Position numbers and translations under genes: made by a program. Of a stretch of DNA of 15,457 bases, positions 4,543-15,457 are shown piece after piece. Position 1 is the first letter of the stretch. The number at the start of each line of letters is the position of its first letter. The notes under the pieces are model-generated. The model saw nothing but the letters and a program-made list of their open reading frames with translations. It searched no databases and was not told where the DNA came from. The stretch comes from Spirulina sp. (GTDB taxonomy: Bacteria > Cyanobacteriota > Cyanobacteriia > Phormidesmidales > Phormidesmidaceae), in contig JBIPSI010000056.1 of NCBI GenBank assembly GCA_044070495.1, forward strand, positions 1 through 15,457, written 5' to 3'.

Positions 4543-5055
4543 ATGGTGGATCTGTCTCGCATTCCGGCCCAGCCCGAACCTGGCGTCATTAACGTCCTGA
4601 TTGAAATTCCGGCAGGCAGCAAAAATAAGTACGAATTTGACAAAGACCTCAATGCCTTTGCCCTGGATCGGGTGCTGTTCTCCTCGGTGCACTATCCCCT
4701 CGACTATGGCTTTGTGCCCAACACCCTAGCCGACGATGGCGACCCCCTCGATGGCATGGTGATGATGGATCAGCCCACCTTTCCTGGATGCGTGATTGCG
4801 GCCCGTCCCATTGGCATGTTGGAAATGATCGACGGTGGCGACCGCGACGAGAAAATCCTCTGCGTGCCCGTGGCCGATCCCCGCTATGCCACGGTGAAAT
4901 CCTTGGATGACGTAGCTCCCCACCGTTTGGACGAAATCGCCGAGTTCTTCCGCTCCTACAAAAACCTGGAAAAGAAGGTCACCGAAATCCTCGGCTGGCA
5001 GAATGTGGACAAGGTGCAGGCCCTGGTAAGCCAGTGCATTGCCGCCTATAAGTAA
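4543..5055 (+). CDS. ppa: Soluble inorganic pyrophosphatase (family I)
   Basis: Motifs [35 protein letters not shown] and [17 protein letters not shown] at 4532. Start is ATG 4543 or GTG 4546. Confidence 0.97.
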
Positions 5056-5110
5056 CCTGACATCGGGGGGATGGGTAGCACGGCCTCTCCCCCAACCCAT
5101 CTCCCTCAGG

Positions 5111-5276
5111 GCTATCGCTTATACACAAGTCTCTATTCTGTTAGTTCCTAGGGTTGATCCCCCCTAGCCCCCCTTGTGAAGGGGGGAACTGGAGTCAAAG
5201 TCCCCCTTGATAAGGGGGATTTAGGGGGATCTCCCAGGTATGGCGGGATGAGAGCAAGCTGTGTCTAAGCAGTAAC
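5111..5276. repeat. Cyanobacterial small dispersed repeat / MITE-like element between convergent genes
   Basis: Core 5156-5231 GATCCCCCCTAGCCCCCCTTGTGAAGGGGGGAAC...GTCCCCCTTGATAAGGGGGATTTAGGGGGATC is an inverted doublet of C-run/G-run hairpins. Outer imperfect IR GCTATCGCTTATACACA / TGTGTCTAAGCAGTAAC. Confidence 0.7.
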
Positions 5277-8211: not shown

Positions 8212-9354
8212 TTACCTTCCCAGGGCCACGGCGGAGGGCATGGCCACGGTTTCATAGAGACGCTCTAGGAGCGATAGATTGGCATTGAGGGTATAGCGGA
8301 ATACCACGCGCTCGCGGGCTTTGCGGCCTAGGAGTTGGGCCACTTCGGGATGGTCGCGCAGCAGGGGCAGAATGGTTTGCAACTGCACCGCCACCCGTTG
8401 GGGGTCTAGCACAATGCCCGCCCCATGGGCCAAGACTTCCCCATCGGCCCCGGCATCGGTGGCCACGCAGGCGGTACCGCAGGCCATCGCTTCCAGCAAG
8501 GAGAGGGACAAGCCTTCCACGAAGGAGGGCAGGATAAAGCCATCGGCCCCCCGCAGCAGGTCAATGCGCCGCTGCACATCGGCGACATAGCCTAGCCACA
8601 GAATATTGGCGTCATCGTAAAACAGCTTGAGGGAGGACTCGAGCGGCCCACTACCCATAATCACCAGCTTGCAGGTTGGCCCCATATCCGCTAGCCGCCA
8701 GCCCTTCAGCAGCGATTCCACGTTTTTTTCTGGGGAAAGGCGACCCTGGTAGACAAACAGCCGTTCCGCCCCCAACTCCGCCTTCGCCGAAGATGGGCCA
8801 GGGGTATAGCGCTGGGTATCCACACCGTTGGGAATCACCTCTAGGCGATCATCGGGCACCCCCAATTTGCTCAGCAGGTCGCGCTGGAGATCGGAGAACA
8901 CGATCACCCGGTCGTAGTTGGCCAAACAGGGGGCATAGAGCTGGTAGGTGAGGTGTTGGGTGCCAGAGGTAATGCTGCGCACCTTGCGGTCGAAGGCGGG
9001 GTGAAAGGTGGCGACCAGGGGCAGTCCCAATTCTGCACAGATTTCTGGCAACCGAAAGTCCAGGGGGGAGAGGGTCAAGGACGCATGGACAATATCGGGT
9101 TTAAGCTGCCGCAGGGCATTGGTCAACAGCTTCCGGGACCGCAGGGAGGGAATAGTGAGAATCTGCGACTTAAACAAAAAGGGGAGGGACACCTCAGCGG
9201 CTTCAGGATGGGCCTCGGCCTCGACCCCATGGGGCTGGGCAAAGTGCAAAAACGTGACGCGGTAGCCCCGTTCTAGGAGGGCATTGGTAATTTCTCGACT
9301 GTAGGTGACGTTGCCGCAGAAGGGGGATTTCTTGCCAAGCCACGCAATATGCAT
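8212..9354 (-). CDS. dgdA: Glycosyltransferase family 4, digalactosyldiacylglycerol synthase (DgdA/Ycf82-like)
   Basis: N-terminus MHIAWLGKKSPFCGNVTYSREITNALL matches my recollection of cyanobacterial DgdA; GT4 motifs IPNGVD, GRLSPEKN and EGLSLSLLEAMACG. Confidence 0.85.
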   Translation of the reverse strand: MHIAWLGKKSPFCGNVTYSREITNALLERGYRVTFLHFAQPHGVEAEAHPEAAEVSLPFLFKSQILTIPSLRSRKLLTNALRQLKPDIVHASLTLSPLDFRLPEICAELGLPLVATFHPAFDRKVRSITSGTQHLTYQLYAPCLANYDRVIVFSDLQRDLLSKLGVPDDRLEVIPNGVDTQRYTPGPSSAKAELGAERLFVYQGRLSPEKNVESLLKGWRLADMGPTCKLVIMGSGPLESSLKLFYDDANILWLGYVADVQRRIDLLRGADGFILPSFVEGLSLSLLEAMACGTACVATDAGADGEVLAHGAGIVLDPQRVAVQLQTILPLLRDHPEVAQLLGRKARERVVFRYTLNANLSLLERLYETVAMPSAVALGR

Positions 9355-9450
9355 TCACGGTTCGGGGGATAGGGTGACGGAGAAGGGACAGGTACGCGGG
9401 GACAGACCCATCCCGATAGGCGAGAGGTGAAGCACGCCCGTAACCGGAGC

Positions 9451-9483
9451 CTACCTCAATGCTGTATCGGCAATATACCAGGT
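9451..9483 (-). pseudogene. Orphaned 3' end of a host gene, probably the MFS transporter that usually precedes dgdA
   Basis: Minus strand reads ACC TGG TAT ATT GCC GAT ACA GCA TTG AGG TAG (TWYIADTALR*) and ends 96 nt before the dgdA ATG. Identification rests on recalled deoC-recO-MFS-dgdA synteny and a recalled TWYI-like C-terminus. Confidence 0.5.
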
Positions 9484-9563
9484 TCTGAAGCGTAGAGCCC
9501 TTCTAGAGATCATTGCTACCCACCCAATGATCGGGTGAGGGCTCGTAGCGAAAGAACCTGGTA
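9476..9563. repeat. 88-bp interrupted inverted repeat at the element boundary
   Basis: Nested stems TACCAGGTTCT/AGAACCTGGTA, GAGCCCT/AGGGCTC and GATCATTG/CAATGATC separated by internal loops. Confidence 0.85.
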
Positions 9564-9569
9564 ACGCGC

Positions 9570-9596
9570 AAAAAAACGGCCCCAGGGCGGGGCCGT
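9570..9596 (-). terminator. Intrinsic terminator of the recombinase gene
   Basis: Minus strand ACGGCCCC-GCCCT-GGGGCCGT followed by a T-run, 20 nt after the TAG. Confidence 0.85.
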
Positions 9597-9616
9597 CGTG
9601 GTGTGACGGGGTGGGG

Positions 9617-10810
9617 CTAGAGGCTGGCCAGTAGCTCTCGATAGAGATCCTTCACCAGCTTGCTGGCCACCTTGGAAACGGCCTGGGGGTGAGGCATGGG
9701 TGGCAGGGCTTCATAATAGGCGCGATGCTGAGCCAGGTACTTGGGGATCTGCATGTTGGGGCGACTCCGCAAGATAACCACCATCATTTTGATGTGAAGG
9801 TAGATCGCCGTTCGGGCATAGCGGGGGCCTGCGGCTACCTCTGTCTTTACCTGCCCGCTCTGGTACAGGGTGGTGCCGTTGCCCAGGGCTAGTCGAAAGG
9901 CCCCCAGGGAACGATCACGGCGATTCATGCGGCCACTTTTGGAGGGCACACGGGCGCGGATCGGCTTGCCATCGTCTCCCAGGAATTGATCGAAAGGAAC
10001 GATGCGGCTTAGGATACTCGCCCTGGTATTGGAGGCAAAGCCAAACCTATCAAACACGGTGTGATAGGGGGCAAACTCTGGAGACTCCAGCAGCTCGGAG
10101 ATCCTGACCTCTAAGTCATACTGACGCCGTTCTAGTTCGCAGATTTGAGAGGCCAGGGTTTTAGACATAATCGACACCCCTGCTCCGACCGAGCTTCCTT
10201 GTTTGGAGGCCCAGGCTTTACGGTAGCGTCCCTCTCCGGTGGCGATGTAGTTCCACAGAGTAGGCGGCTCTGGGGCCATCCACTTGCGAGACTGTTTGGG
10301 GCGCTTTCCGCCTGATGAGACGCAAACCTCTGGCCATTCCCTGGATAGGAGCTGCCATAGGCGGCGCTGATAGTTCCCCGTCATTCGGCTTAGGAACTGG
10401 TGCTGTAGGACGGCGTCGCGCAGATCCTCGGCATAGTCGCTGAGGAATGCGCTGGGGCGTCCTAGGTTCTCGGCTCCATAGAGGGCCAAGAATGCCGCGT
10501 CGTATCGGTCACTTTTGCTCATCACCCCGTGATAGGTCTGTAGAGCCTTCACCCGCTGGGGGTTCACTCGGTAGACCGCTCGATCATTGGCCTTCAGGAT
10601 ATCGATCCACACCTTGGAGTAGTCGCCGGTGGGCTCCAGAATGAATACCTCTCCCATGGTTAACAGGGAGGCGATTCCGTCGATGGTGGGACACAGGCCG
10701 ATGGGCTGATAGGAGCCTGAGAACTTGCGGTAGTCGGAGGGCATAGCCTCGGAATCTACCACGCAACACGTGATCGACGTTTTGGAAACGTCAATACCTA
10801 CAATCTTCAT
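9617..10810 (-). CDS. IS110-family (DEDD) recombinase/transposase, 397 aa
   Basis: ATG at 10810 (MKIVGIDVSK). RuvC-like DEDD residues in GIDVSK, LEPTG and KSDRYDA; VNPQRVK; coiled-coil middle; C-terminal Tnp domain with YQSG, the position of the catalytic Ser. Confidence 0.88.
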   Translation of the reverse strand: MKIVGIDVSKTSITCCVVDSEAMPSDYRKFSGSYQPIGLCPTIDGIASLLTMGEVFILEPTGDYSKVWIDILKANDRAVYRVNPQRVKALQTYHGVMSKSDRYDAAFLALYGAENLGRPSAFLSDYAEDLRDAVLQHQFLSRMTGNYQRRLWQLLSREWPEVCVSSGGKRPKQSRKWMAPEPPTLWNYIATGEGRYRKAWASKQGSSVGAGVSIMSKTLASQICELERRQYDLEVRISELLESPEFAPYHTVFDRFGFASNTRASILSRIVPFDQFLGDDGKPIRARVPSKSGRMNRRDRSLGAFRLALGNGTTLYQSGQVKTEVAAGPRYARTAIYLHIKMMVVILRSRPNMQIPKYLAQHRAYYEALPPMPHPQAVSKVASKLVKDLYRELLASL

Positions 10811-10898
10811 GAGTTGAATCACCCTTATCTCGGTTCGCAAAGCCCCAGGGGTCAAGCCACCTGTCTGGCACGTCATTCTAAGAACGGGATCCTCTAGG

Positions 10899-10967
10899 GC
10901 TAGGGGCCGTCTAGCAACGTTGCCAAAGCTGAAAAGCTAAGGGCCGTCTAGCAACGTTCCGAAAGCT
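10899..10967. repeat. Tandem direct repeat, 2 copies, 37-nt period
   Basis: GCTAGGGGCCGTCTAGCAACGTTGCCAAAGCT (10899-10930) vs GCTAAGGGCCGTCTAGCAACGTTCCGAAAGCT (10936-10967); 29/32 identical. Confidence 0.9.
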
Positions 10968-11042
10968 TTTGCAGCAACCTGGTATGAGCTCCGACCCCTA
11001 GGCGGTTTGGAGGACAGAAGGATTGCAGCCCCTCTATCCGTG

Positions 11043-11114
11043 CTAAGCCATCCCGCGACTACTCCAAGGGGAGTAGTTTCGGCCCTTGGCAGGGGCCATC
11101 GTCAGGCGGGTTAG
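11043..11114 (-). ncRNA. Hammerhead ribozyme, type I
   Basis: Minus strand: CUAA CCCGC-CUGACGA-U-GGCCC[CUGCCAA]GGGCC-GAAA-CUACUCC[CCUU]GGAGUAG-UC^-GCGGG[AUGGC]UUAG. Full catalytic core and GUC cleavage triplet; loop II GCCA is complementary to UGGC in the stem I bulge. Confidence 0.9.
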
Positions 11115-11332
11115 TAGTCGGAGCCGTCGCTCTCTTCTATGTGGGGCTCTCCGGTGTCGAGGGTGAGGCCTTCTGCGAGGGCCTGGAGACGTTGAACGAT
11201 GGCGCTACGGGCATCCATGGCTTCCATGGAGATAAACATCTCGTCATTGAGAAGGCTGGCAATGTCTATCAGCTCTCGCAGGGCGTTCATGGCCCAGGGT
11301 TGGATGGTGGGGGTTTTATTCGCCATGGTCAT
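11111..11332 (-). CDS. Phage hypothetical protein (73 aa)
   Basis: Overlaps the end of the upstream ORF, GGAG RBS, helical acidic sequence; last small ORF before the hammerhead. Confidence 0.7.
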   Translation of the reverse strand: MTMANKTPTIQPWAMNALRELIDIASLLNDEMFISMEAMDARSAIVQRLQALAEGLTLDTGEPHIEESDGSDY

Positions 11333-11519
11333 CGGCTCCGGTGGCGAGGGGGTAACGGGCGTTGAGGGCGACTTCTTGCTCTAGACGCGCTTTGTTGAGG
11401 GCCTGGGCTTGGTCGCGAAGATAGGTCAGGTCGGGCAAGCTCATGGAGCGCATTTCTTTGAGGATTTCGCTCGTCACTCGGTCTTTGGGGGTTACGTAGT
11501 GGGCGTTTCCGGTGTTCAT
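11316..11519 (-). CDS. Phage hypothetical protein (67 aa)
   Basis: ATG at 11519 overlaps the upstream TGA (ATGA); RBS GGAGG. Confidence 0.72.
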   Translation of the reverse strand: MNTGNAHYVTPKDRVTSEILKEMRSMSLPDLTYLRDQAQALNKARLEQEVALNARYPLATGADDHGE

Positions 11520-11845
11520 TCCCAGGTTTCCTCCATGCGGAATTTCATTTTGATGGCCTCTGCTGATCCGTTGGATTGGCATAGGCCTCGCCAAAATAGG
11601 CCGGCGTAGGAGATGGATGAAAAGCGCCCGACCTCTTTGCCGGTGGCGCGGTTCACCACTCGATAGATTTTCTGTGGCAGGGGCGGGGGCGTTTTGGTTT
11701 CTAGGCGCTGGGCCAGCAAGCTCACCAGCTCACGTTTGCGAAGGTGTTTCCCCACCCCGTGGGCGTTGGCCCATTGGATGCCATGCCGCTCGGCGATCTG
11801 CTGTAGGCGGGGTAGGCGTAGGGTCATTAGCTCTTCTTGGGTCAT
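11516..11845 (-). CDS. Protein with N-terminal Rho_N/HeH-like nucleic-acid-binding motif
   Basis: LMTLRLPRLQQIAERHGI...HLRKRELVSLL fits the Rho-N/HeH pattern; TAATG overlap with the upstream gene; RBS GGAGG. Confidence 0.7.
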   Translation of the reverse strand: MTQEELMTLRLPRLQQIAERHGIQWANAHGVGKHLRKRELVSLLAQRLETKTPPPLPQKIYRVVNRATGKEVGRFSSISYAGLFWRGLCQSNGSAEAIKMKFRMEETWE

Positions 11846-12231
11846 TAGTCGTCGCCTCCGTGGTGAACGTCGTCGAACAGTCCGTCTAGACGGTTTTCGA
11901 GGTCTTTTACCTGGCTCTCTAGGTCGCCGACCCGAATAGCCAAGCGGCTTAGGGTGTCTTCGTGGCTGATGTATCGCTTCTTCAGTTCGGCGATTTGATG
12001 GGAGTGGAGATCGGTCGGCACTGCGAGGATTTCTTGCAGATCCTCTAGAACCTCCAGCAGTTCCACCAGGTCTAGGGTGATGGCACTGAAGGGGGGATCT
12101 GTCAGATTGACGGCGGAAAAACTGATCTGACGATTCTCTGTGTCGGGTGGATCTATGACAACGGCTACTGGAACCTCGGTTACGTGCCGCCCATAGTCAA
12201 ACCCAATGGTCGTTACAACGGCTTTTTGCAT
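11845..12231 (-). CDS. Phage hypothetical protein with C-terminal coiled coil; first gene of the leftward operon
   Basis: RBS AGGAGA; heptad pattern LSRLAIRVGDLESQVKDLENRLDGL. Confidence 0.78.
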   Translation of the reverse strand: MQKAVVTTIGFDYGRHVTEVPVAVVIDPPDTENRQISFSAVNLTDPPFSAITLDLVELLEVLEDLQEILAVPTDLHSHQIAELKKRYISHEDTLSRLAIRVGDLESQVKDLENRLDGLFDDVHHGGDD

Positions 12232-12399
12232 AGCTTCTCCTAAGAAAATCCGGGGGGCGTTCCCCGGTCACTACGTTTGACGCTAGTCAGTCACTTTGGC
12301 CTGGGCGGAATTGCACCGCCTGCATGAACGCCCACACACCCCTAGGGCCAGCCAGGAAAACGGGGGGAGTGAAGCCCCGTTGTGGAGTTGGTTATCCTG

Positions 12400-12490
12400 A
12401 GGGCTATTGTATATGCAATAGATGTAGATGTATAGTCAATGCATGATGAGTTTATCTATGCAGATGGCGAATCATTGCCTATACAATGGA
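12400..12490. promoter_or_regulatory. AT-rich divergent promoter/operator region
   Basis: Plus strand TTGTAT-N18-TATAGT (12407-12436) and TACAAT (12482-12487); minus strand TTGACT and TACAAT; inverted ATTGTATA/TATACAAT and TGTATAG/CTATACA; tandem TAGATG. Confidence 0.55.
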
Positions 12491-12514
12491 GCTTAAATTC
12501 AATGCCCTACGAAG

Positions 12515-12703
12515 ATGCCCAAAGCCAAACATGCGAAATGGGGAGAACCCAAGGACTCTCAGCTTCCGCCCCAGCGGATGACGCGCACGGGATTGAATCT
12601 CCTCAAGGCCAAGGCCCAGGAGGTGGGAAGCGTGTCAGAGCTTCTGGAGTTGATAGCGCGGTCGGAGTTGCCTTCCTCTTTGGGGGAATCGTCGCCCAGT
12701 TGA
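12515..12703 (+). CDS. Ribbon-helix-helix (CopG-like) transcriptional regulator
   Basis: RMTRTGLNLLKAKAQEVG-SVSELLELIAR fits the strand-helix-G-S-helix pattern of small cyanobacterial RHH proteins. Confidence 0.7.
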   Translation: MPKAKHAKWGEPKDSQLPPQRMTRTGLNLLKAKAQEVGSVSELLELIARSELPSSLGESSPS

Positions 12704-12834
12704 TCCAAGATGCAGAGGATCGGCGGGCTGAGGTGGTGGACTGCATCGACTGGTATCAGCGGGAATTGGAGAAGTGTGATCGTCGCCTTGAGTCGCTGAA
12801 GACTCTCGCCCAAAGCATCCAATCTGCTGAGTAA
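12700..12834 (+). CDS. Short coiled-coil protein, coupled to or frameshift-fused with the RHH gene
   Basis: TTG at 12700 overlaps the RHH TGA; IQDAEDRRAEVVDCIDWYQRELEKCDRRLESLKTLAQSIQ is amphipathic; a terminator follows. Start is uncertain because the frame is open from 12439. Confidence 0.55.
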   Translation: MIQDAEDRRAEVVDCIDWYQRELEKCDRRLESLKTLAQSIQSAE

Positions 12835-12844
12835 ATACCCACAA

Positions 12845-12884
12845 CAAACCCCCAGAGGTGATCGCATCTCTGGGGGTTTGCTTT
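12845..12884. terminator. Bidirectional intrinsic terminator between convergent genes
   Basis: CAAACCCCCAGAGGTG-ATCG-CATCTCTGGGGGTTTG, 16-bp stem with one G-T pair. Confidence 0.8.
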
Positions 12885-12897
12885 GGCGTGGTGGTGG

Positions 12898-13116
12898 TTA
12901 GCGGGGGCGGCGCTTCTTCCGCTCGTCGGCCTTAGCTGTGGCGGCGTCGCCCTTCCTGATGATGGACACCCACTGCATTAACGGAGAAAAGCCCGTGCGA
13001 GTCCAAGCGAAATAGGTTGTCTTCTTCTCTCCCAAGACATAAAGGTGATCGTGAGCGGCTGACATGAGGAGCTGCGTCAAGAAGACACCCCAAAAAACAT
13101 AGTCGAACCATTTCAT
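12898..13116 (-). CDS. Small putative membrane protein
   Basis: ATG at 13116; hydrophobic N-terminus WFDYVFWGVFLTQLLMSAA; basic tail RKKRRPR; ends next to the terminator. Confidence 0.5.
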   Translation of the reverse strand: MKWFDYVFWGVFLTQLLMSAAHDHLYVLGEKKTTYFAWTRTGFSPLMQWVSIIRKGDAATAKADERKKRRPR

Positions 13117-13155
13117 AACCAGCAACCAAACTCAGCAAATTTAAAGTGCCCAGCC

Positions 13156-13392
13156 ATGACGCAACTTAACCTCTTAGACCTAATCGACCAGCCAGAGTAC
13201 CGAGGTGATGATGTGGATCATCTCGTAGATGCCATCTTGGCGGAACTGGAGGCCCACGGCCTGAGCCAGGATGAGCAACGGGCCTTGGCGGTGCGGCTCA
13301 ATGCGCATCAGGTGCTCAGCATGGTGCGGCGGTGGCCAGCACCAGCCCGAAACTACTTTCTGTCCTTGATTGTGGAAGGTTTAGCCGACTAA
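13156..13392 (+). CDS. Phage hypothetical protein (78 aa)
   Basis: Clean ATG-TAA ORF with helical composition and N-terminal QLNLL. Confidence 0.7.
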   Translation: MTQLNLLDLIDQPEYRGDDVDHLVDAILAELEAHGLSQDEQRALAVRLNAHQVLSMVRRWPAPARNYFLSLIVEGLAD

Positions 13393-13480
13393 GACCCAAA
13401 TCAAATACAGTAGCGACCCAGCAAACGCCGCAAAGCTCAACAATGCACCCACCAGCAAAAGCCACTCTTCTCTTCCAATC

Positions 13481-14497
13481 ATGTCTACATGCCCACATCT
13501 TTTCCCCAGCCTAGACCACCCCAGCGGCTACTATTGCCGCCTAGATTGCGGGGGCAACTGTCACAACGAGTTTTTTGAAAAAAATGATATTTCGTTTTCA
13601 GAAAACAACGAAATATCGGCGGTTTCGGGGGTGCCCCTCCTGGGCTTCAAGACCAGGAGGAACCCACACGAGCAGGGGCAACTGTCACACGTTGGACGAA
13701 CACCCGCCGTTACCCTAAAACGGCCATGGGCCTACGCGATTACCCACTTGGGAAAGGACGTTGAGAACAGAACCTGGGCGCTACCGAGAGAGGCCGGGAC
13801 GGTAATCGCAATCCACGCAGGGAAGGGATGGGACGCAGACGGCGCGGAATGGATCAGGTCTAGCGGCCTGGGAGATGTGCCGCCGGAAAGCGAACACCCA
13901 GCAGGGGCCATCGTTGCGCTGGCCACCTTTCGGGGCAACACTCAGACGCATAACTCGCCATGGTTCTTTGGCCCCTGGGGGTGGGTACTGTCAGACGTTC
14001 AGCCCATCAAGCCGATCTACTGTCGGGGGAACCAAGGTCTATGGTTTTGGGATGGCGGAGAGGTGGAGCTATTGGGAAACGCGTCCGACAGCTTGGAACG
14101 TCGCGGTTCTAGCTCTGTCATCGATGGGACGGAAACCCATTATTTCCCTATGGAAAACGTGTCCGACAGCTTGAAACCTCGTTGCATCGATGAGGCTGAT
14201 CCAGGGGATGAGGACGACCAGCTCTATGAAATGTTTTGCCGCTCTGGCCAGTTTTGGCATGAGGCGGGGCCATACCCCAGCAAGGGACGGACGTACTACC
14301 GCTACCGCTGGGGCCATGGCCATGCGATTGATGGCGTCCGCCACATTCCGGGCGGTTCCATGCTGCGGGGGCTGGCGAGGGAACGGGCGGCCATCATTGA
14401 ACGGGCGGTGTATGTGGATTTTCGGCCCCATGCTGAGATTTTGGCGGTGATTGATGGATGGCGACGGCTGACGCCACGACCTAAAATCAGGCTGTGA
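13481..14497 (+). CDS. ASCH-domain protein with Cys/His-rich N-terminus and an extra C-terminal domain
   Basis: ASCH signature TLKRPWAYAITHLGKDVENRTW...IAIHAG...GAIVALA...W.LSDV..IKPIYCRGNQGLW. Confidence 0.85.
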   Translation: MSTCPHLFPSLDHPSGYYCRLDCGGNCHNEFFEKNDISFSENNEISAVSGVPLLGFKTRRNPHEQGQLSHVGRTPAVTLKRPWAYAITHLGKDVENRTWALPREAGTVIAIHAGKGWDADGAEWIRSSGLGDVPPESEHPAGAIVALATFRGNTQTHNSPWFFGPWGWVLSDVQPIKPIYCRGNQGLWFWDGGEVELLGNASDSLERRGSSSVIDGTETHYFPMENVSDSLKPRCIDEADPGDEDDQLYEMFCRSGQFWHEAGPYPSKGRTYYRYRWGHGHAIDGVRHIPGGSMLRGLARERAAIIERAVYVDFRPHAEILAVIDGWRRLTPRPKIRL

Positions 14498-14509
14498 CTA
14501 CTACTCAGC

Positions 14510-14548
14510 GAACCCTCGGCGGCCAAGGCCCTGGGGGTTTTGTTTTGG
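14510..14548. terminator. Probable terminator between the ASCH and FHA genes
   Basis: Imperfect GC hairpin GAACCCTCGGCGGCC-AA-GGCCCTGGGGGTTT followed by TGTTTT. Confidence 0.55.
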
Positions 14549-14549
14549 G

Positions 14550-15122
14550 TTAGTGGATGACGACGGCGGCCACCGCAACGGCGGCGACGGCGGCCAGCAG
14601 CACCAGCAGCAGGAATCGGGCTGTTTTTCCCCAGAAGGTGGTGCCGGTGGTGAACCACTGGACAAACAGGTAGAGGGCGTCGTCGTAGCGGTCGCCGTCG
14701 AGGGGAGCTGGGGGAATGGTGGCCAGGGGCGTGAGGCTTACGACGGTGGCGGGGCCGTCGTCGTTGATGGTGTCGTTCTCATCCTCAACAACTCGGATCG
14801 GCGGGTTGCTGCTGAGGTGGATTTTGTCTCCGATGGTGAGGGAGTGCCAGTTATAGGGGGTGAGGGCTTGGTCGTTTAACCAGGTGCCCCCGGTGGATTT
14901 GAGATCCTGAATGGCCCAGCGGTCGGCGGCGTAGCTGTAGGTGATGGCCAGATGGCGACGACTAACGGTCTTGACGGCCAAGGTTAGGTCTAACTCTGGG
15001 GAGCGTCCGACCAGGAACTCGTCAGAGTCGGCGTCTGGTCGGGGGATGGTCAGGCGATGGGTGTGATCCGCCAATGACGGGTCGGGGAACTCAGGCGGAA
15101 AGTAGAGCGATAGGGTTGGCAC
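14550..15122 (-). CDS. FHA-domain protein with C-terminal transmembrane helix
   Basis: Motifs VGR, VSRRH, IQDLKSTGGTWLN and LTIGDKI; TM segment FLLLVLLAAVAAVAVAAVVI; GTG at 15122 behind RBS AGGAGGAGG. Confidence 0.88.
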   Translation of the reverse strand: MPTLSLYFPPEFPDPSLADHTHRLTIPRPDADSDEFLVGRSPELDLTLAVKTVSRRHLAITYSYAADRWAIQDLKSTGGTWLNDQALTPYNWHSLTIGDKIHLSSNPPIRVVEDENDTINDDGPATVVSLTPLATIPPAPLDGDRYDDALYLFVQWFTTGTTFWGKTARFLLLVLLAAVAAVAVAAVVIH

Positions 15123-15243
15123 TCTGACTACCTCCTCCTTGGCGACGGCCTGGGAATTTGTTGCGGTCGCCAGCAACCAGGGCGAGGCCCAGTAGCAGAG
15201 CCAGTAGCAGGGCGATCCATGGTTTACGGGGGCTGCGATTCAT
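15091..15243 (-). CDS. Small membrane-anchored or secreted peptide (50 aa)
   Basis: ATG at 15243 overlaps the upstream TGA (ATGA); basic n-region, hydrophobic WIALLLALLLGLALVA, then PGRRQGGGS. Confidence 0.6.
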   Translation of the reverse strand: MNRSPRKPWIALLLALLLGLALVAGDRNKFPGRRQGGGSQSANPIALLSA

Positions 15244-15446
15244 GGGATTAGGTCTGACAAGGACAGGGGCGGGGCATAGGGCGGGGGCTGAGGGCCTTCG
15301 ATCCACTGTTGGGCGGCTGCATCCCACTGAGGGGAAGCCATTCCGGGGGGCGGGTCGGCTGCGGTGATTTGCCAGCCGGGGGGCGGCGTGGCGTCGGGTT
15401 CGCAGTTGCCGCCGAAGGTTAGGGTGTCGGTGATGAGGCTAGGCAT
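15240..15446 (-). CDS. Phage tail-fibre-assembly-like small protein
   Basis: T..PP...SPQWDAAAQQWIE resembles the Pro/Trp motif of tail-fibre assembly (Tfa-like) proteins; lies in a convergent operon. Confidence 0.5.
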   Translation of the reverse strand: MPSLITDTLTFGGNCEPDATPPPGWQITAADPPPGMASPQWDAAAQQWIEGPQPPPYAPPLSLSDLIP

Positions 15447-15457
15447 ATCTGAACAGT

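Follow-up and report, generated by a model that had tools for sequence, protein, structure and literature searches.

A probable bridge RNA with twin guide units upstream of a divergent IS110-family recombinase in a cyanobacterial mobile element

The window analysed here, the whole 15,457-nt stretch of contig JBIPSI010000056.1 (assembly GCA_044070495.1, Spirulina sp.), carries on its minus strand a pair of near-identical direct repeats, located 88 nt before the ATG at 10810 of a gene for a 397-aa IS110-family recombinase. An earlier note, made from the letters of the sequence alone, had proposed a bridge-like recombinase RNA in the interval 11056-10811. Comparison with related loci makes it very probable that this region is a bridge RNA with its target guides as mapped in Table 1: a structured RNA with two guide-bearing loops adjoins the recombinase gene, and the proposal is supported by the family and fold of the protein, the covariation of the RNA, and the matches of the repeat flanks to the junctions of the element, whose boundaries the comparison also fixed. 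The limits of the note's interval are exactly the predicted ribozyme cleavage site at one end and the base before the ATG at the other. The complete reading, namely the bridge RNA of a divergent IS110 recombinase that is processed by a hammerhead ribozyme, has a target and a donor loop, and holds a further guide module in the first repeat unit (unit 1), claims more and is, in our view, likely. For the comparison we gathered 25 distinct related loci, designated by L-numbers below.

Twin repeat units and the fold of the RNA

The two repeats (10899-10930 and 10936-10967, 32 nt each) agree at 29 of 32 positions (91%) and start 37 nt apart, just as the earlier note had read them. The chance of an identity of at least 29/32 is about 7.5e-15 per position pair and about 1.5e-8 over a 2-kb region, and a chance origin of the twin repeat is excluded; a blastn-short search found no other occurrence of the unit in the genome. 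Two of the three differences between the repeats occupy guide positions in the flanks (UUCGGAAC in unit 1 vs. UUGGCAAC in unit 2), and because of the third, F1 (the 5' strand of helix H_A) pairs better with unit 2 than with unit 1 (RNAduplex energies of -20.9 vs. -18.2 kcal/mol). Both secondary structures suggested earlier are present: unit 1 is enclosed by the stem GCUG(C)AAAAGCU (10975-10964)/AGCUUUUCAGC (10938-10928), and the alternative 10-bp helix corresponds to the pairing of 11003-10988 with unit 2, for which RNAduplex gives 10 bp, a 1x3 internal loop, and a further 3 bp; unit 1 yields an identical layout with this strand.

The RNA is kept upstream of the recombinase in nine close homologues. 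In an alignment of these nine, 92.7% of the 411 cells are paired for the specified structure, and 20 of the 46 pairs change on both sides, compared to 9.5 ± 1.7 in shuffled alignments, none of which (0 of 500) reached 20; in controls with slid pairing partners, 3 to 9 pairs changed on both sides. The aligned upstream regions thus show the covariation that had been named as a check. RNAalifold independently recovers H_A, H_B, P2, and stem III of the hammerhead. The elements of the RNA are a 5' stem-loop, helix H_A, a small hairpin inside that loop, helix P2, and hairpin H_B, with H_A and H_B sharing the same design (3 bp, a 1x3 internal loop, and a GC helix). In the consensus of H_A, F1 (..GGGyyGGrGC) faces the unit core (GCYAnACrGCCC..), and F1 can pair with the core of either unit, with compensatory pairs at 139/191 (CG:5, UA:4) and 143/186 (AU:5, GC:4). 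The preference of F1 for unit 2 is reversed in loci L006, L019, and L045, where unit 1 is the better partner by 0.7-1.7 kcal/mol (RNAduplex).

Among the 12 closer loci, seven carry twin units and five a single unit, and the twins are distributed over three branches with differing unit sequences (the window with L006, L019, and L045; L010; L033 with L034). The twin arrangement is thus not universal. The alternative that the repeats are double-stranded DNA sites, such as operators or recombinase-binding sites, and not RNA would fit direct repeats just upstream of a gene and cores that vary little in sequence within the closest clade. However, the cores pair with the distant F1, with the compensatory changes just described, the flanks follow the junction sequences of each element, and a hammerhead motif lies directly upstream on the same strand, making DNA sites a very improbable explanation.

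Thermodynamic prediction weighs against the fold given above. The naked twin-type RNA is predicted to fold without H_A (minimum free energy (MFE) of -97.2 kcal/mol), and enforcing H_A changes this to -70.3 kcal/mol with the F1-unit 2 pairing or -65.0 kcal/mol with the F1-unit 1 pairing, with similar gaps in three relatives; the predicted fold differs from the comparative model by 20-32 kcal/mol. Furthermore, F1 can pair with 10858-10845, just 5' of the second GGAGCU (CUAGGGGUC with GACCCCUGG). We retained the comparative model over the MFE fold because of the covariation. The pairing of F1 with 10858-10845 belongs to the MFE fold, and this complementarity is also kept in homologues.

Because the 3' strand of P2 covers the AAGGG motif upstream of the recombinase gene, the folded RNA might restrict translation of that gene. 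As called in the database, the recombinase gene (419 aa, start at 10876) would overlap the second RNA loop (10811-10876); judging by the N-termini of the homologues, the start at ATG 10810 is favoured over 10876.

Table 1. Features of the window, with positions counted from its first letter
Feature	Position	Strand	Sequence, basis or remark
Processed bridge RNA (predicted), 246 nt	10811-11056	minus	Ribozyme cleavage site to base before recombinase ATG
Candidate type I hammerhead ribozyme	11051-11111	minus	Sequence motif, conserved across loci
5' stem-loop SL0	11012-11039	minus	Helices 3 and 4, changes on both sides
F1, 5' strand of H_A	10988-11003	minus	GCCUAGGGGUCGGAGC; duplex energies; helices 5 and 6
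G1, long target guide	10976-10986	minus	CAUACCAGGUU; complementary to recombinase-sense core and right target AACCTGGTAT (9484-9475)
Unit 1	10936-10966	minus	Flank GCUUUCGGAACGUU (10966-10953) and core GCUAGACGGCCCUUAGC (10952-10936)
Unit 2	10899-10929	minus	Flank GCUUUGGCAACGUU (10929-10916) and core GCUAGACGGCCCCUAGC (10915-10899)
Second loop (putatively donor-binding)	10822-10891	minus	Helices 8-11
P2, 5' strand	10881-10891	minus
Second-loop flank	10870-10880	minus	UAGAAUGACGU; complementary to core and left end ACGTTATTCTA
Hairpin H_B	10842-10869	minus
G2	10829-10840	minus	UUGCGAACCGAG; partial match to right end and core
P2, 3' strand	10822-10830	minus	Overlaps Shine-Dalgarno-like AAGGG, 12-16 nt before ATG
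IS110-family recombinase gene, 397 aa (P0001)	9617-10810	minus	Pfam DEDD_Tnp_IS110, profile and structure matches
Intrinsic terminator	9568-9597	minus	3' of recombinase gene; terminator kept there in homologues
Right-end region	9485-9564	minus	Inverted repeat, conserved apical hairpin
Crossover core AAC	9482-9484 (ambiguous by 3 nt)	minus	Empty-site comparison
Right target after core	9472-9484 (core and target)	minus	CTGGTATATT; host DNA, 3' end of conserved membrane-protein gene
phrog_3193 protein	13481-14497	plus	Shared cargo
FHA-domain protein	14550-15176	minus	Shared cargo

Guides and the half-sites they match

In nine of nine relatives without the element, similarity to the window begins exactly at 9484 (AACCTGGTATATTGCC...). 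The body (left part) of the split host gene is found on contig C50, where it ends ...GGTGGC-AAC-GTTATTCTATT (GTTATTC...), while the right junction in the window reads ...CGCTTCAG-AAC-CTGGTAT, and AAC is the sole sequence common to both junctions. A second copy of the element, with its left end on contig C47 and its right end on C50, has the core AAT and its own scarless empty site in relatives. Together with GAT in L009 and AA in L034, these are the cores shared between junctions; the empty sites are scarless, and insertion involves no target duplication beyond this short core of 2-3 nt. All four half-sites are known for only 6-7 elements, two of which share a target, and the left end is not reached in L006, L008, L010, L026, and L033, where the contigs end.

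The guide G1 follows the target of each element. In six elements, it matches the reverse complement of the cognate core and right target over 9-12 nt, compared to at most 7 nt for non-cognate ones, when scored by the longest common substring (a fixed register fails for C50 and L009, which show a one-base shift). A scan blind to guide position found matches of at least 10 nt in 12 of 12 cognate vs. 7 of 132 non-cognate pairs, and the longest cognate match (10-12 nt) was G1 in 11 of the 12 loci. The second target guide lies in the flank of unit 2, where UGGCAAC (10925-10919) equals the left target and core and GUU (10918-10916) the bases with which the left end begins. TGGCAAC-GTT is the sequence of target and left junction, and the empty sites in nine relatives and the left junction on C50 bear out this match. 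The flank of unit 2, or of the single unit, matches the left target and core over 6-7 nt in six of six cognate comparisons, a length of 6 nt being reached in 3 of 30 non-cognate ones; when the left-end bases are added, the match extends to 10-11 contiguous nt in the window, C50, L009, L045, and L019. As an independent test, L034, whose recombinase is 39.5% identical and whose units are different, obeys the same rule: unit 2 matches the left junction over 11 nt, and the G1 match is 10 nt long. The expectation that loop bases would vary with the insertion site is thus borne out by the target guides, which track the junction sequences of each element. The flanks of the repeats appear to act as guides, but the longest programmable guide (10986-10976) lies outside the repeats.

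The earlier note had likened the two units to the target and donor modules. The comparison supports the idea that the bases by which they differ set specificity, one unit for the target and one for the donor, but the units are not the two canonical loops themselves: they appear to be alternative 3' halves of the first loop, with the donor-binding loop further 3' (10891-10822). In this second loop, the segment UAGAAUGACGU, located 5' of the third unit core, can form 11 pairs, one of them G.T, with the core and left end. Conservation of both this segment and the left ends makes the scores of cognate and non-cognate pairs similar. A further point against the full reading is the weak match of G2 to the right end and core, aligned by hand at 6/8 in the window and 3-7 of 8-9 positions elsewhere, and no recurrent exact G2 match of at least 9 nt to flanking DNA was found in seven loci. 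The target guides and the left-end guide are matched by DNA of the element and its target, and for the right-end guide a match is present that does not discriminate between elements. Junction-like matches of 9-12 nt at position 187 of the reverse complement of L053 and at C50 12294 were rejected as chance; their context is unlike the left end and about 0.5 such matches are expected.

We lean slightly towards a function of unit 1 as a donor or right-junction guide. Its flank agrees without mismatch with the right end and core for 8 nt in L045 and 7 nt in L034, where unit 1 has UACGGAA at the right end. In the window, the flank (UUCGGAAC-GUU) continues into left-end sequence, which allows pairing with the joined ends over 11 nt. 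Several observations speak against such a function: the match to the right end and core in the window (TTCAGAAC) is 7/8, the mismatch being a G.T wobble; the right ends are conserved between elements, so the match does not separate cognate from non-cognate; in L019 it fails (5/11); and unit 1 is dispensable for the family, as five of the 12 closer homologues have one unit only. These points would equally suit a bridge RNA in which unit 1 is a functionless duplicated remnant in the stem-loop of the target loop, its likeness to the right end stemming from a conserved ...CGGAAC motif, and the 91% likeness of the units in the window is what a recent copy would leave. Yet the twins of the three separate branches have quite different unit sequences, in each branch the first flank carries right-end and the second left-target sequence, and both cores retain their complementarity to F1. 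We thus consider a mere remnant unlikely.

The right-end hairpin of L019 (L052 reverse complement, ~17250-17345) is a perfect 29-bp palindrome, and its right junction is now perfectly complementary to the inner arm. The junction has AGC instead of AAC, which accounts for the mismatch of both G1 and unit 1 at this locus, and looks like the product of one arm having been converted by the other.

From the bridge RNA so defined we infer expression, ribozyme cleavage, and recombination activity along the following lines. The RNA would be co-transcribed with small open reading frames (ORFs) upstream, and the hammerhead (11111-11051) would cut between 11057 and 11056 and free the 5' end. In the first, target-binding loop, F1 would pair with a unit core (GCUAGACGGCCC...), presenting two guides: G1 would pair over 10-11 nt with the recombinase-sense strand of the core and right target, and UGGCAAC with the opposite strand of the left target and core, followed by a handshake-like GUU that matches the start of the left end. 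The second loop (10891-10822) would read the left end via UAGAAUGACGU and, weakly and discontinuously, the right end via G2. Unit 1 would add a third module, its flank UUCGGAAC-GUU being complementary across the joined right end, core, and left end (the donor junction). As the two unit cores would compete for F1 (11003-10988), two states of the first loop can be envisaged. Pairing of F1 with unit 2 would display G1 and the left-target guide, a combination that would fit the empty target perfectly and serve insertion. Pairing with unit 1 would display G1 and the right-end guide, whose next three bases match the left end; this combination would fit the right junction of the integrated element perfectly, would promote the strand exchange by which the circle is restored, and would recognise the circle junction once exchange has occurred, thereby serving excision. 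Such a role of the twin units as a direction switch between insertion and excision is a tentative idea, and we would rather expect it to fail than to hold; if true, the system would represent a naturally occurring three-module bridge RNA in which control over insertion versus excision is built in, combined with hammerhead processing from the transcript of a cargo operon.

A candidate hammerhead ribozyme at the 5' end

The hammerhead motif begins on the last base of the stop codon (11113-11111) of the upstream ORF. Stem I consists of CCCGC (11110-11106) and GCGGG (11056-11052), and the core CUGACGA (11105-11099) is followed by the stem II hairpin (11098-11081), GAAA (11080-11077), the stem III hairpin (11077-11058), and C17 at 11057. 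Cleavage is predicted between 11057 and 11056, so that the RNA would start at 11056. The motif (CUGANGA, GAAA, and three stems) is present in 20 of the 25 distinct loci, down to 26% protein identity, and in these 20 the position preceding the cut (N17) is occupied by C in 15 loci, by A in 4, and by U in 1; none has G there. Stems II and III vary in sequence among loci yet stay paired through compensatory changes, stem I of L015 (CCCAC/GUGGG) is a double change, and 3 of the 5 pairs in helix 2 of the structure alignment are changed on both sides. Stem III was read by eye in C50 and L009, and the other loci were parsed by script. Four loci have no hammerhead within 700 nt, as is the case for L012 and L013, and in another locus only 121 nt of upstream sequence are available. 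L033 and L034, which lack the motif, have a different hairpin (CCACC...GGUGG) in its place, ~250-200 nt before the ATG.

Compared to the type I hammerhead of Rfam (Hammerhead_1, RF00163), the likeness lies in the CUGANGA and GAAA core, the three stems with stem I open, the absence of G before the cut, the covariation of the stems, and one homologue close to the Rfam threshold (L007, 33.8 bits at a threshold of 34; L006 scores 24.4 bits). Two differences count against the assignment: Rfam finds no hammerhead in the window, even at E ≤ 10, and the copy in the window carries an additional U after A9 and its stem II is long, two traits also present in C50 and L009. We think that the ribozyme is probably active. 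At gathering thresholds, the whole window yields no Rfam match, and matches to IFN_gamma and asX2 obtained in E-value mode (9350-11200) were dismissed as chance-level.

In the literature searched, no hammerhead tied to a bridge RNA was found, with hammerhead, IS110, and bridge RNA co-mentioned as separate topics only. The ribozymes in the portions of PMC11187229 and PMC11208160 available to us are engineered hepatitis delta virus (HDV) ribozymes in constructs and not natural ones.

The recombinase, its mobile element, and known systems

By sequence and predicted fold, the protein encoded downstream of the RNA is a divergent IS110-family recombinase. It matches Pfam DEDD_Tnp_IS110 (PF01548; E 1.4e-15), and a profile from 32 homologues matches IS621 (8wt6) at E 2.4e-10 in a PDB profile search. 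Residues D7 (E in many homologues), E59, D101, and D104 align to IS621 D11, E60, D102, and D105, which are named as catalytic in the available text of PMC11208158. The best Foldseek matches of the AlphaFold2 model (pLDDT 92) are IS621 (8wt9/8wt6) and ISCro4 synaptic-complex chains, aligned over the full length (~410 columns, E 6e-10, TM 0.47/0.55). Against this assignment, there is no match to Pfam Transposase_20 (PF02371) in the C-terminal half at E ≤ 0.01, and the catalytic serine (S241 in IS621) is not assignable by sequence. S301 and Q317-S318-G319 are invariant in the 32 homologues.

Reportedly, TIGR-Tas systems have tandem arrays of many ~36-nt repeat-spacer units and a Nop-domain effector devoid of recombinase domains, and the earlier note had drawn a comparison with them. 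A short TIGR-like array serving a Nop-domain, Tas-like effector would be consistent with a spacing of 37 nt between units of about that size, and Nop5 and TIGR-TasR chains are among the weaker Foldseek matches (E 4e-5 to 3e-3), suggesting a distant relation of fold. The tests made contradict this comparison: instead of an array of many units there are two only, the effector, a recombinase that carries a RuvC-like DEDD domain, has IS621 and ISCro4 as by far its best full-length matches, and the guides read transposon junctions. We therefore give a TIGR-like array next to no credence.

A word-indexed search retrieved 32 related proteins, every one of which with a source name comes from Nodosilinea or other Leptolyngbyaceae, and 20 of 173 genomes of the order have a match at E ≤ 1e-30; no relative of the recombinase was found to be encoded on viral contigs. 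The genome of the window itself contains a second copy, 56.5% identical, on contig C50. A shortened copy (residues 3-332) without an RNA upstream is present in L050 (3833-5140; G054 contig C4), where it abuts a fragment of a phrog_3193 gene 12 kb upstream of, and in the same orientation as, an intact element.

Upstream of the recombinase, the window and C50 are colinear for ~6 kb, and the two contigs share their terminal sequence, showing that the recombinase is part of a larger element, with more than 8 kb seen here and ~11-18 kb between the junctions in relatives. Accordingly, this cargo-carrying mobile element of a Nodosilinea-like filamentous cyanobacterium has the recombinase at its right end. 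The cargo common to both copies (window 11111-15457, C50 1-4400) includes several small ORFs without family matches. The copies are 82-100% identical in the cargo but only 66% in the recombinase gene and are thus a mosaic.

A complication is that a 186-aa tyrosine recombinase, which has only the catalytic Phage_integrase domain (E 2e-13; C50 20767-21345, minus strand; also in L050, L052, L053, L054, and L066), adjoins the left junction wherever this end is seen and could act in integration or excision. If it integrated the element, the RNA might be a 5' leader that only regulates expression of the IS110-type recombinase, in line with the overlap of P2 and the Shine-Dalgarno-like motif. Such a division of labour is, however, highly improbable, as the sequence common to the two junctions amounts to only 2-3 nt, which is typical of IS110 cores but not of the att sites of tyrosine integrases, and each of the four half-sites is matched by a separate RNA segment that changes along with it in elements with different targets.

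The terminator of the IS110-type recombinase gene is directly followed by an inverted near-copy of the element's own right junction (9564-9538 vs. 9501-9475). The left arm, made up of UUACCAGGUU (9564-9555) and an inner arm (9554-9538), is followed by a conserved apical hairpin (9537-9502) and by the inner part of the right arm, AGGGCTCTACGCTTCAG (9501-9485), which is the right end of the element. Host DNA at 9484-9475 is mirrored by the outer 10 nt of this left arm (9564-9555), which change with the target in every locus. The conservation of the apical hairpin extends to its GUGGGU-like loop. The inverted repeat (9476-9563) was considered as a donor site and rejected, because the empty sites show that its outer right arm is host DNA. 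For another IS110 element, a preprint, in the part accessible to us, describes a target stem-loop as a specificity gate.

The comparisons with known systems below refer to those portions of the published reports that were available. In the loops of IS621, the long 5' guide pairs with the bottom strand of the left half-site, and the short 3' guide pairs with the top strand of the right half-site and is followed by handshake bases matching the other DNA (PMC11208158). The system described here resembles IS621 and other IS110 elements (Durrant et al. 2024, PMC11208160; Hiraizumi et al. 2024, PMC11208158) in the RuvC-like DEDD domain, coiled coil, and C-terminal domain fold of the protein, and in a non-coding RNA that immediately precedes the recombinase gene and comprises a 5' stem-loop and two loops. 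Further common features are a long 5' and a short 3' guide per loop that pair with opposite strands of two half-sites, a 2-3-nt core, handshake-like bases after the short target guide that match the donor, and helices with a conserved asymmetric internal loop. The guide logic is also the same if the element is viewed in the opposite orientation, a frame in which the core is TT or TC after a variable base. In contrast, the IS621 arrangement, with the RNA in the left end, inward transcription, and a promoter rebuilt at the circle junction, is not found here. The 5' end of the RNA instead follows a hammerhead, and the cassette of RNA and recombinase occupies one end of a cargo element of more than 10 kb, pointing outward; the RNA, which is preceded by co-directional ORFs as well as the hammerhead, is more than 6 kb from the left end and adjoins the right end, and no sigma-70-like site was found just upstream of it. 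Since the long guides read half-sites downstream of the recombinase gene, the polarity of the cassette is inverted relative to IS621. Other differences from IS621 are the long guides of 10-12 nt, a putative third guide module (unit 1) in seven of 12 loci, the lack of a Pfam Transposase_20 match, and a core of AA(C/T) or GAT on the recombinase-sense strand instead of CT.

The RNA of IS1111 elements lies on the downstream side of the gene for the transposase, unlike the bridge RNA here, which is upstream. A DEDD transposase guided by an element-encoded non-coding RNA near one end is a feature shared with the IS1111/IS110 seekRNA systems (Siddiquee et al. 2024, PMC11187229). A preprint (Hu et al. 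2026, 10.64898/2026.08.14.744561) describes large IS110 elements that arose through progressive additions and contain much plasmid DNA and many resistance genes. As in those elements, an IS110 recombinase and its RNA would here mobilise many kilobases of cargo, but in the elements studied here a conserved set of genes (small ORFs, FHA-domain protein, phrog_3193 protein, and tyrosine recombinase) accompanies the cassette in several species.

The hammerhead-processed, three-module arrangement proposed here would be a variant of the already known bridge RNA system. Bridge recombinases are under development as programmable DNA-writing tools, with weak points in RNA production, guide length, and favouring insertion over excision or the reverse. 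This cyanobacterial lineage may offer a self-processing ribozyme that sets the RNA 5' end within a longer transcript, guides of 10-12 nt, natural cargo of 10-18 kb, and possibly a third module that reads the integrated junction, and the several elements for which target, donor, and RNA are all known provide material for reprogramming experiments. For genome annotation, a gene labelled "IS110 transposase" in Nodosilinea or related Leptolyngbyaceae indicates where a larger integrative element ends.

Finally, some loci show features beside the element or at its insertion point. The reconstructed target of L007 (L053 reverse complement, 2630-2660 and 17300-17320) has a tandem near-repeat, GAACGGGTTAAG/AACGGGTTACAG, across the insertion point. 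L051 (reverse complement, 4574-5200) has a 516-bp tandem duplication that takes in the terminator, the right-end hairpin, and the beginning of the adjacent ornithine-carbamoyltransferase-like gene; whether genuine or not, it could also stem from the assembly. In L010 (1994-2254), ~270 nt downstream of the recombinase gene, there is a group I intron (Rfam, 66 bits) that probably sits in the host gene beside the insertion. A short repeat common to the window (5141-5274) and C50 (9238-9404) is 81-91% identical and unrelated to the element.

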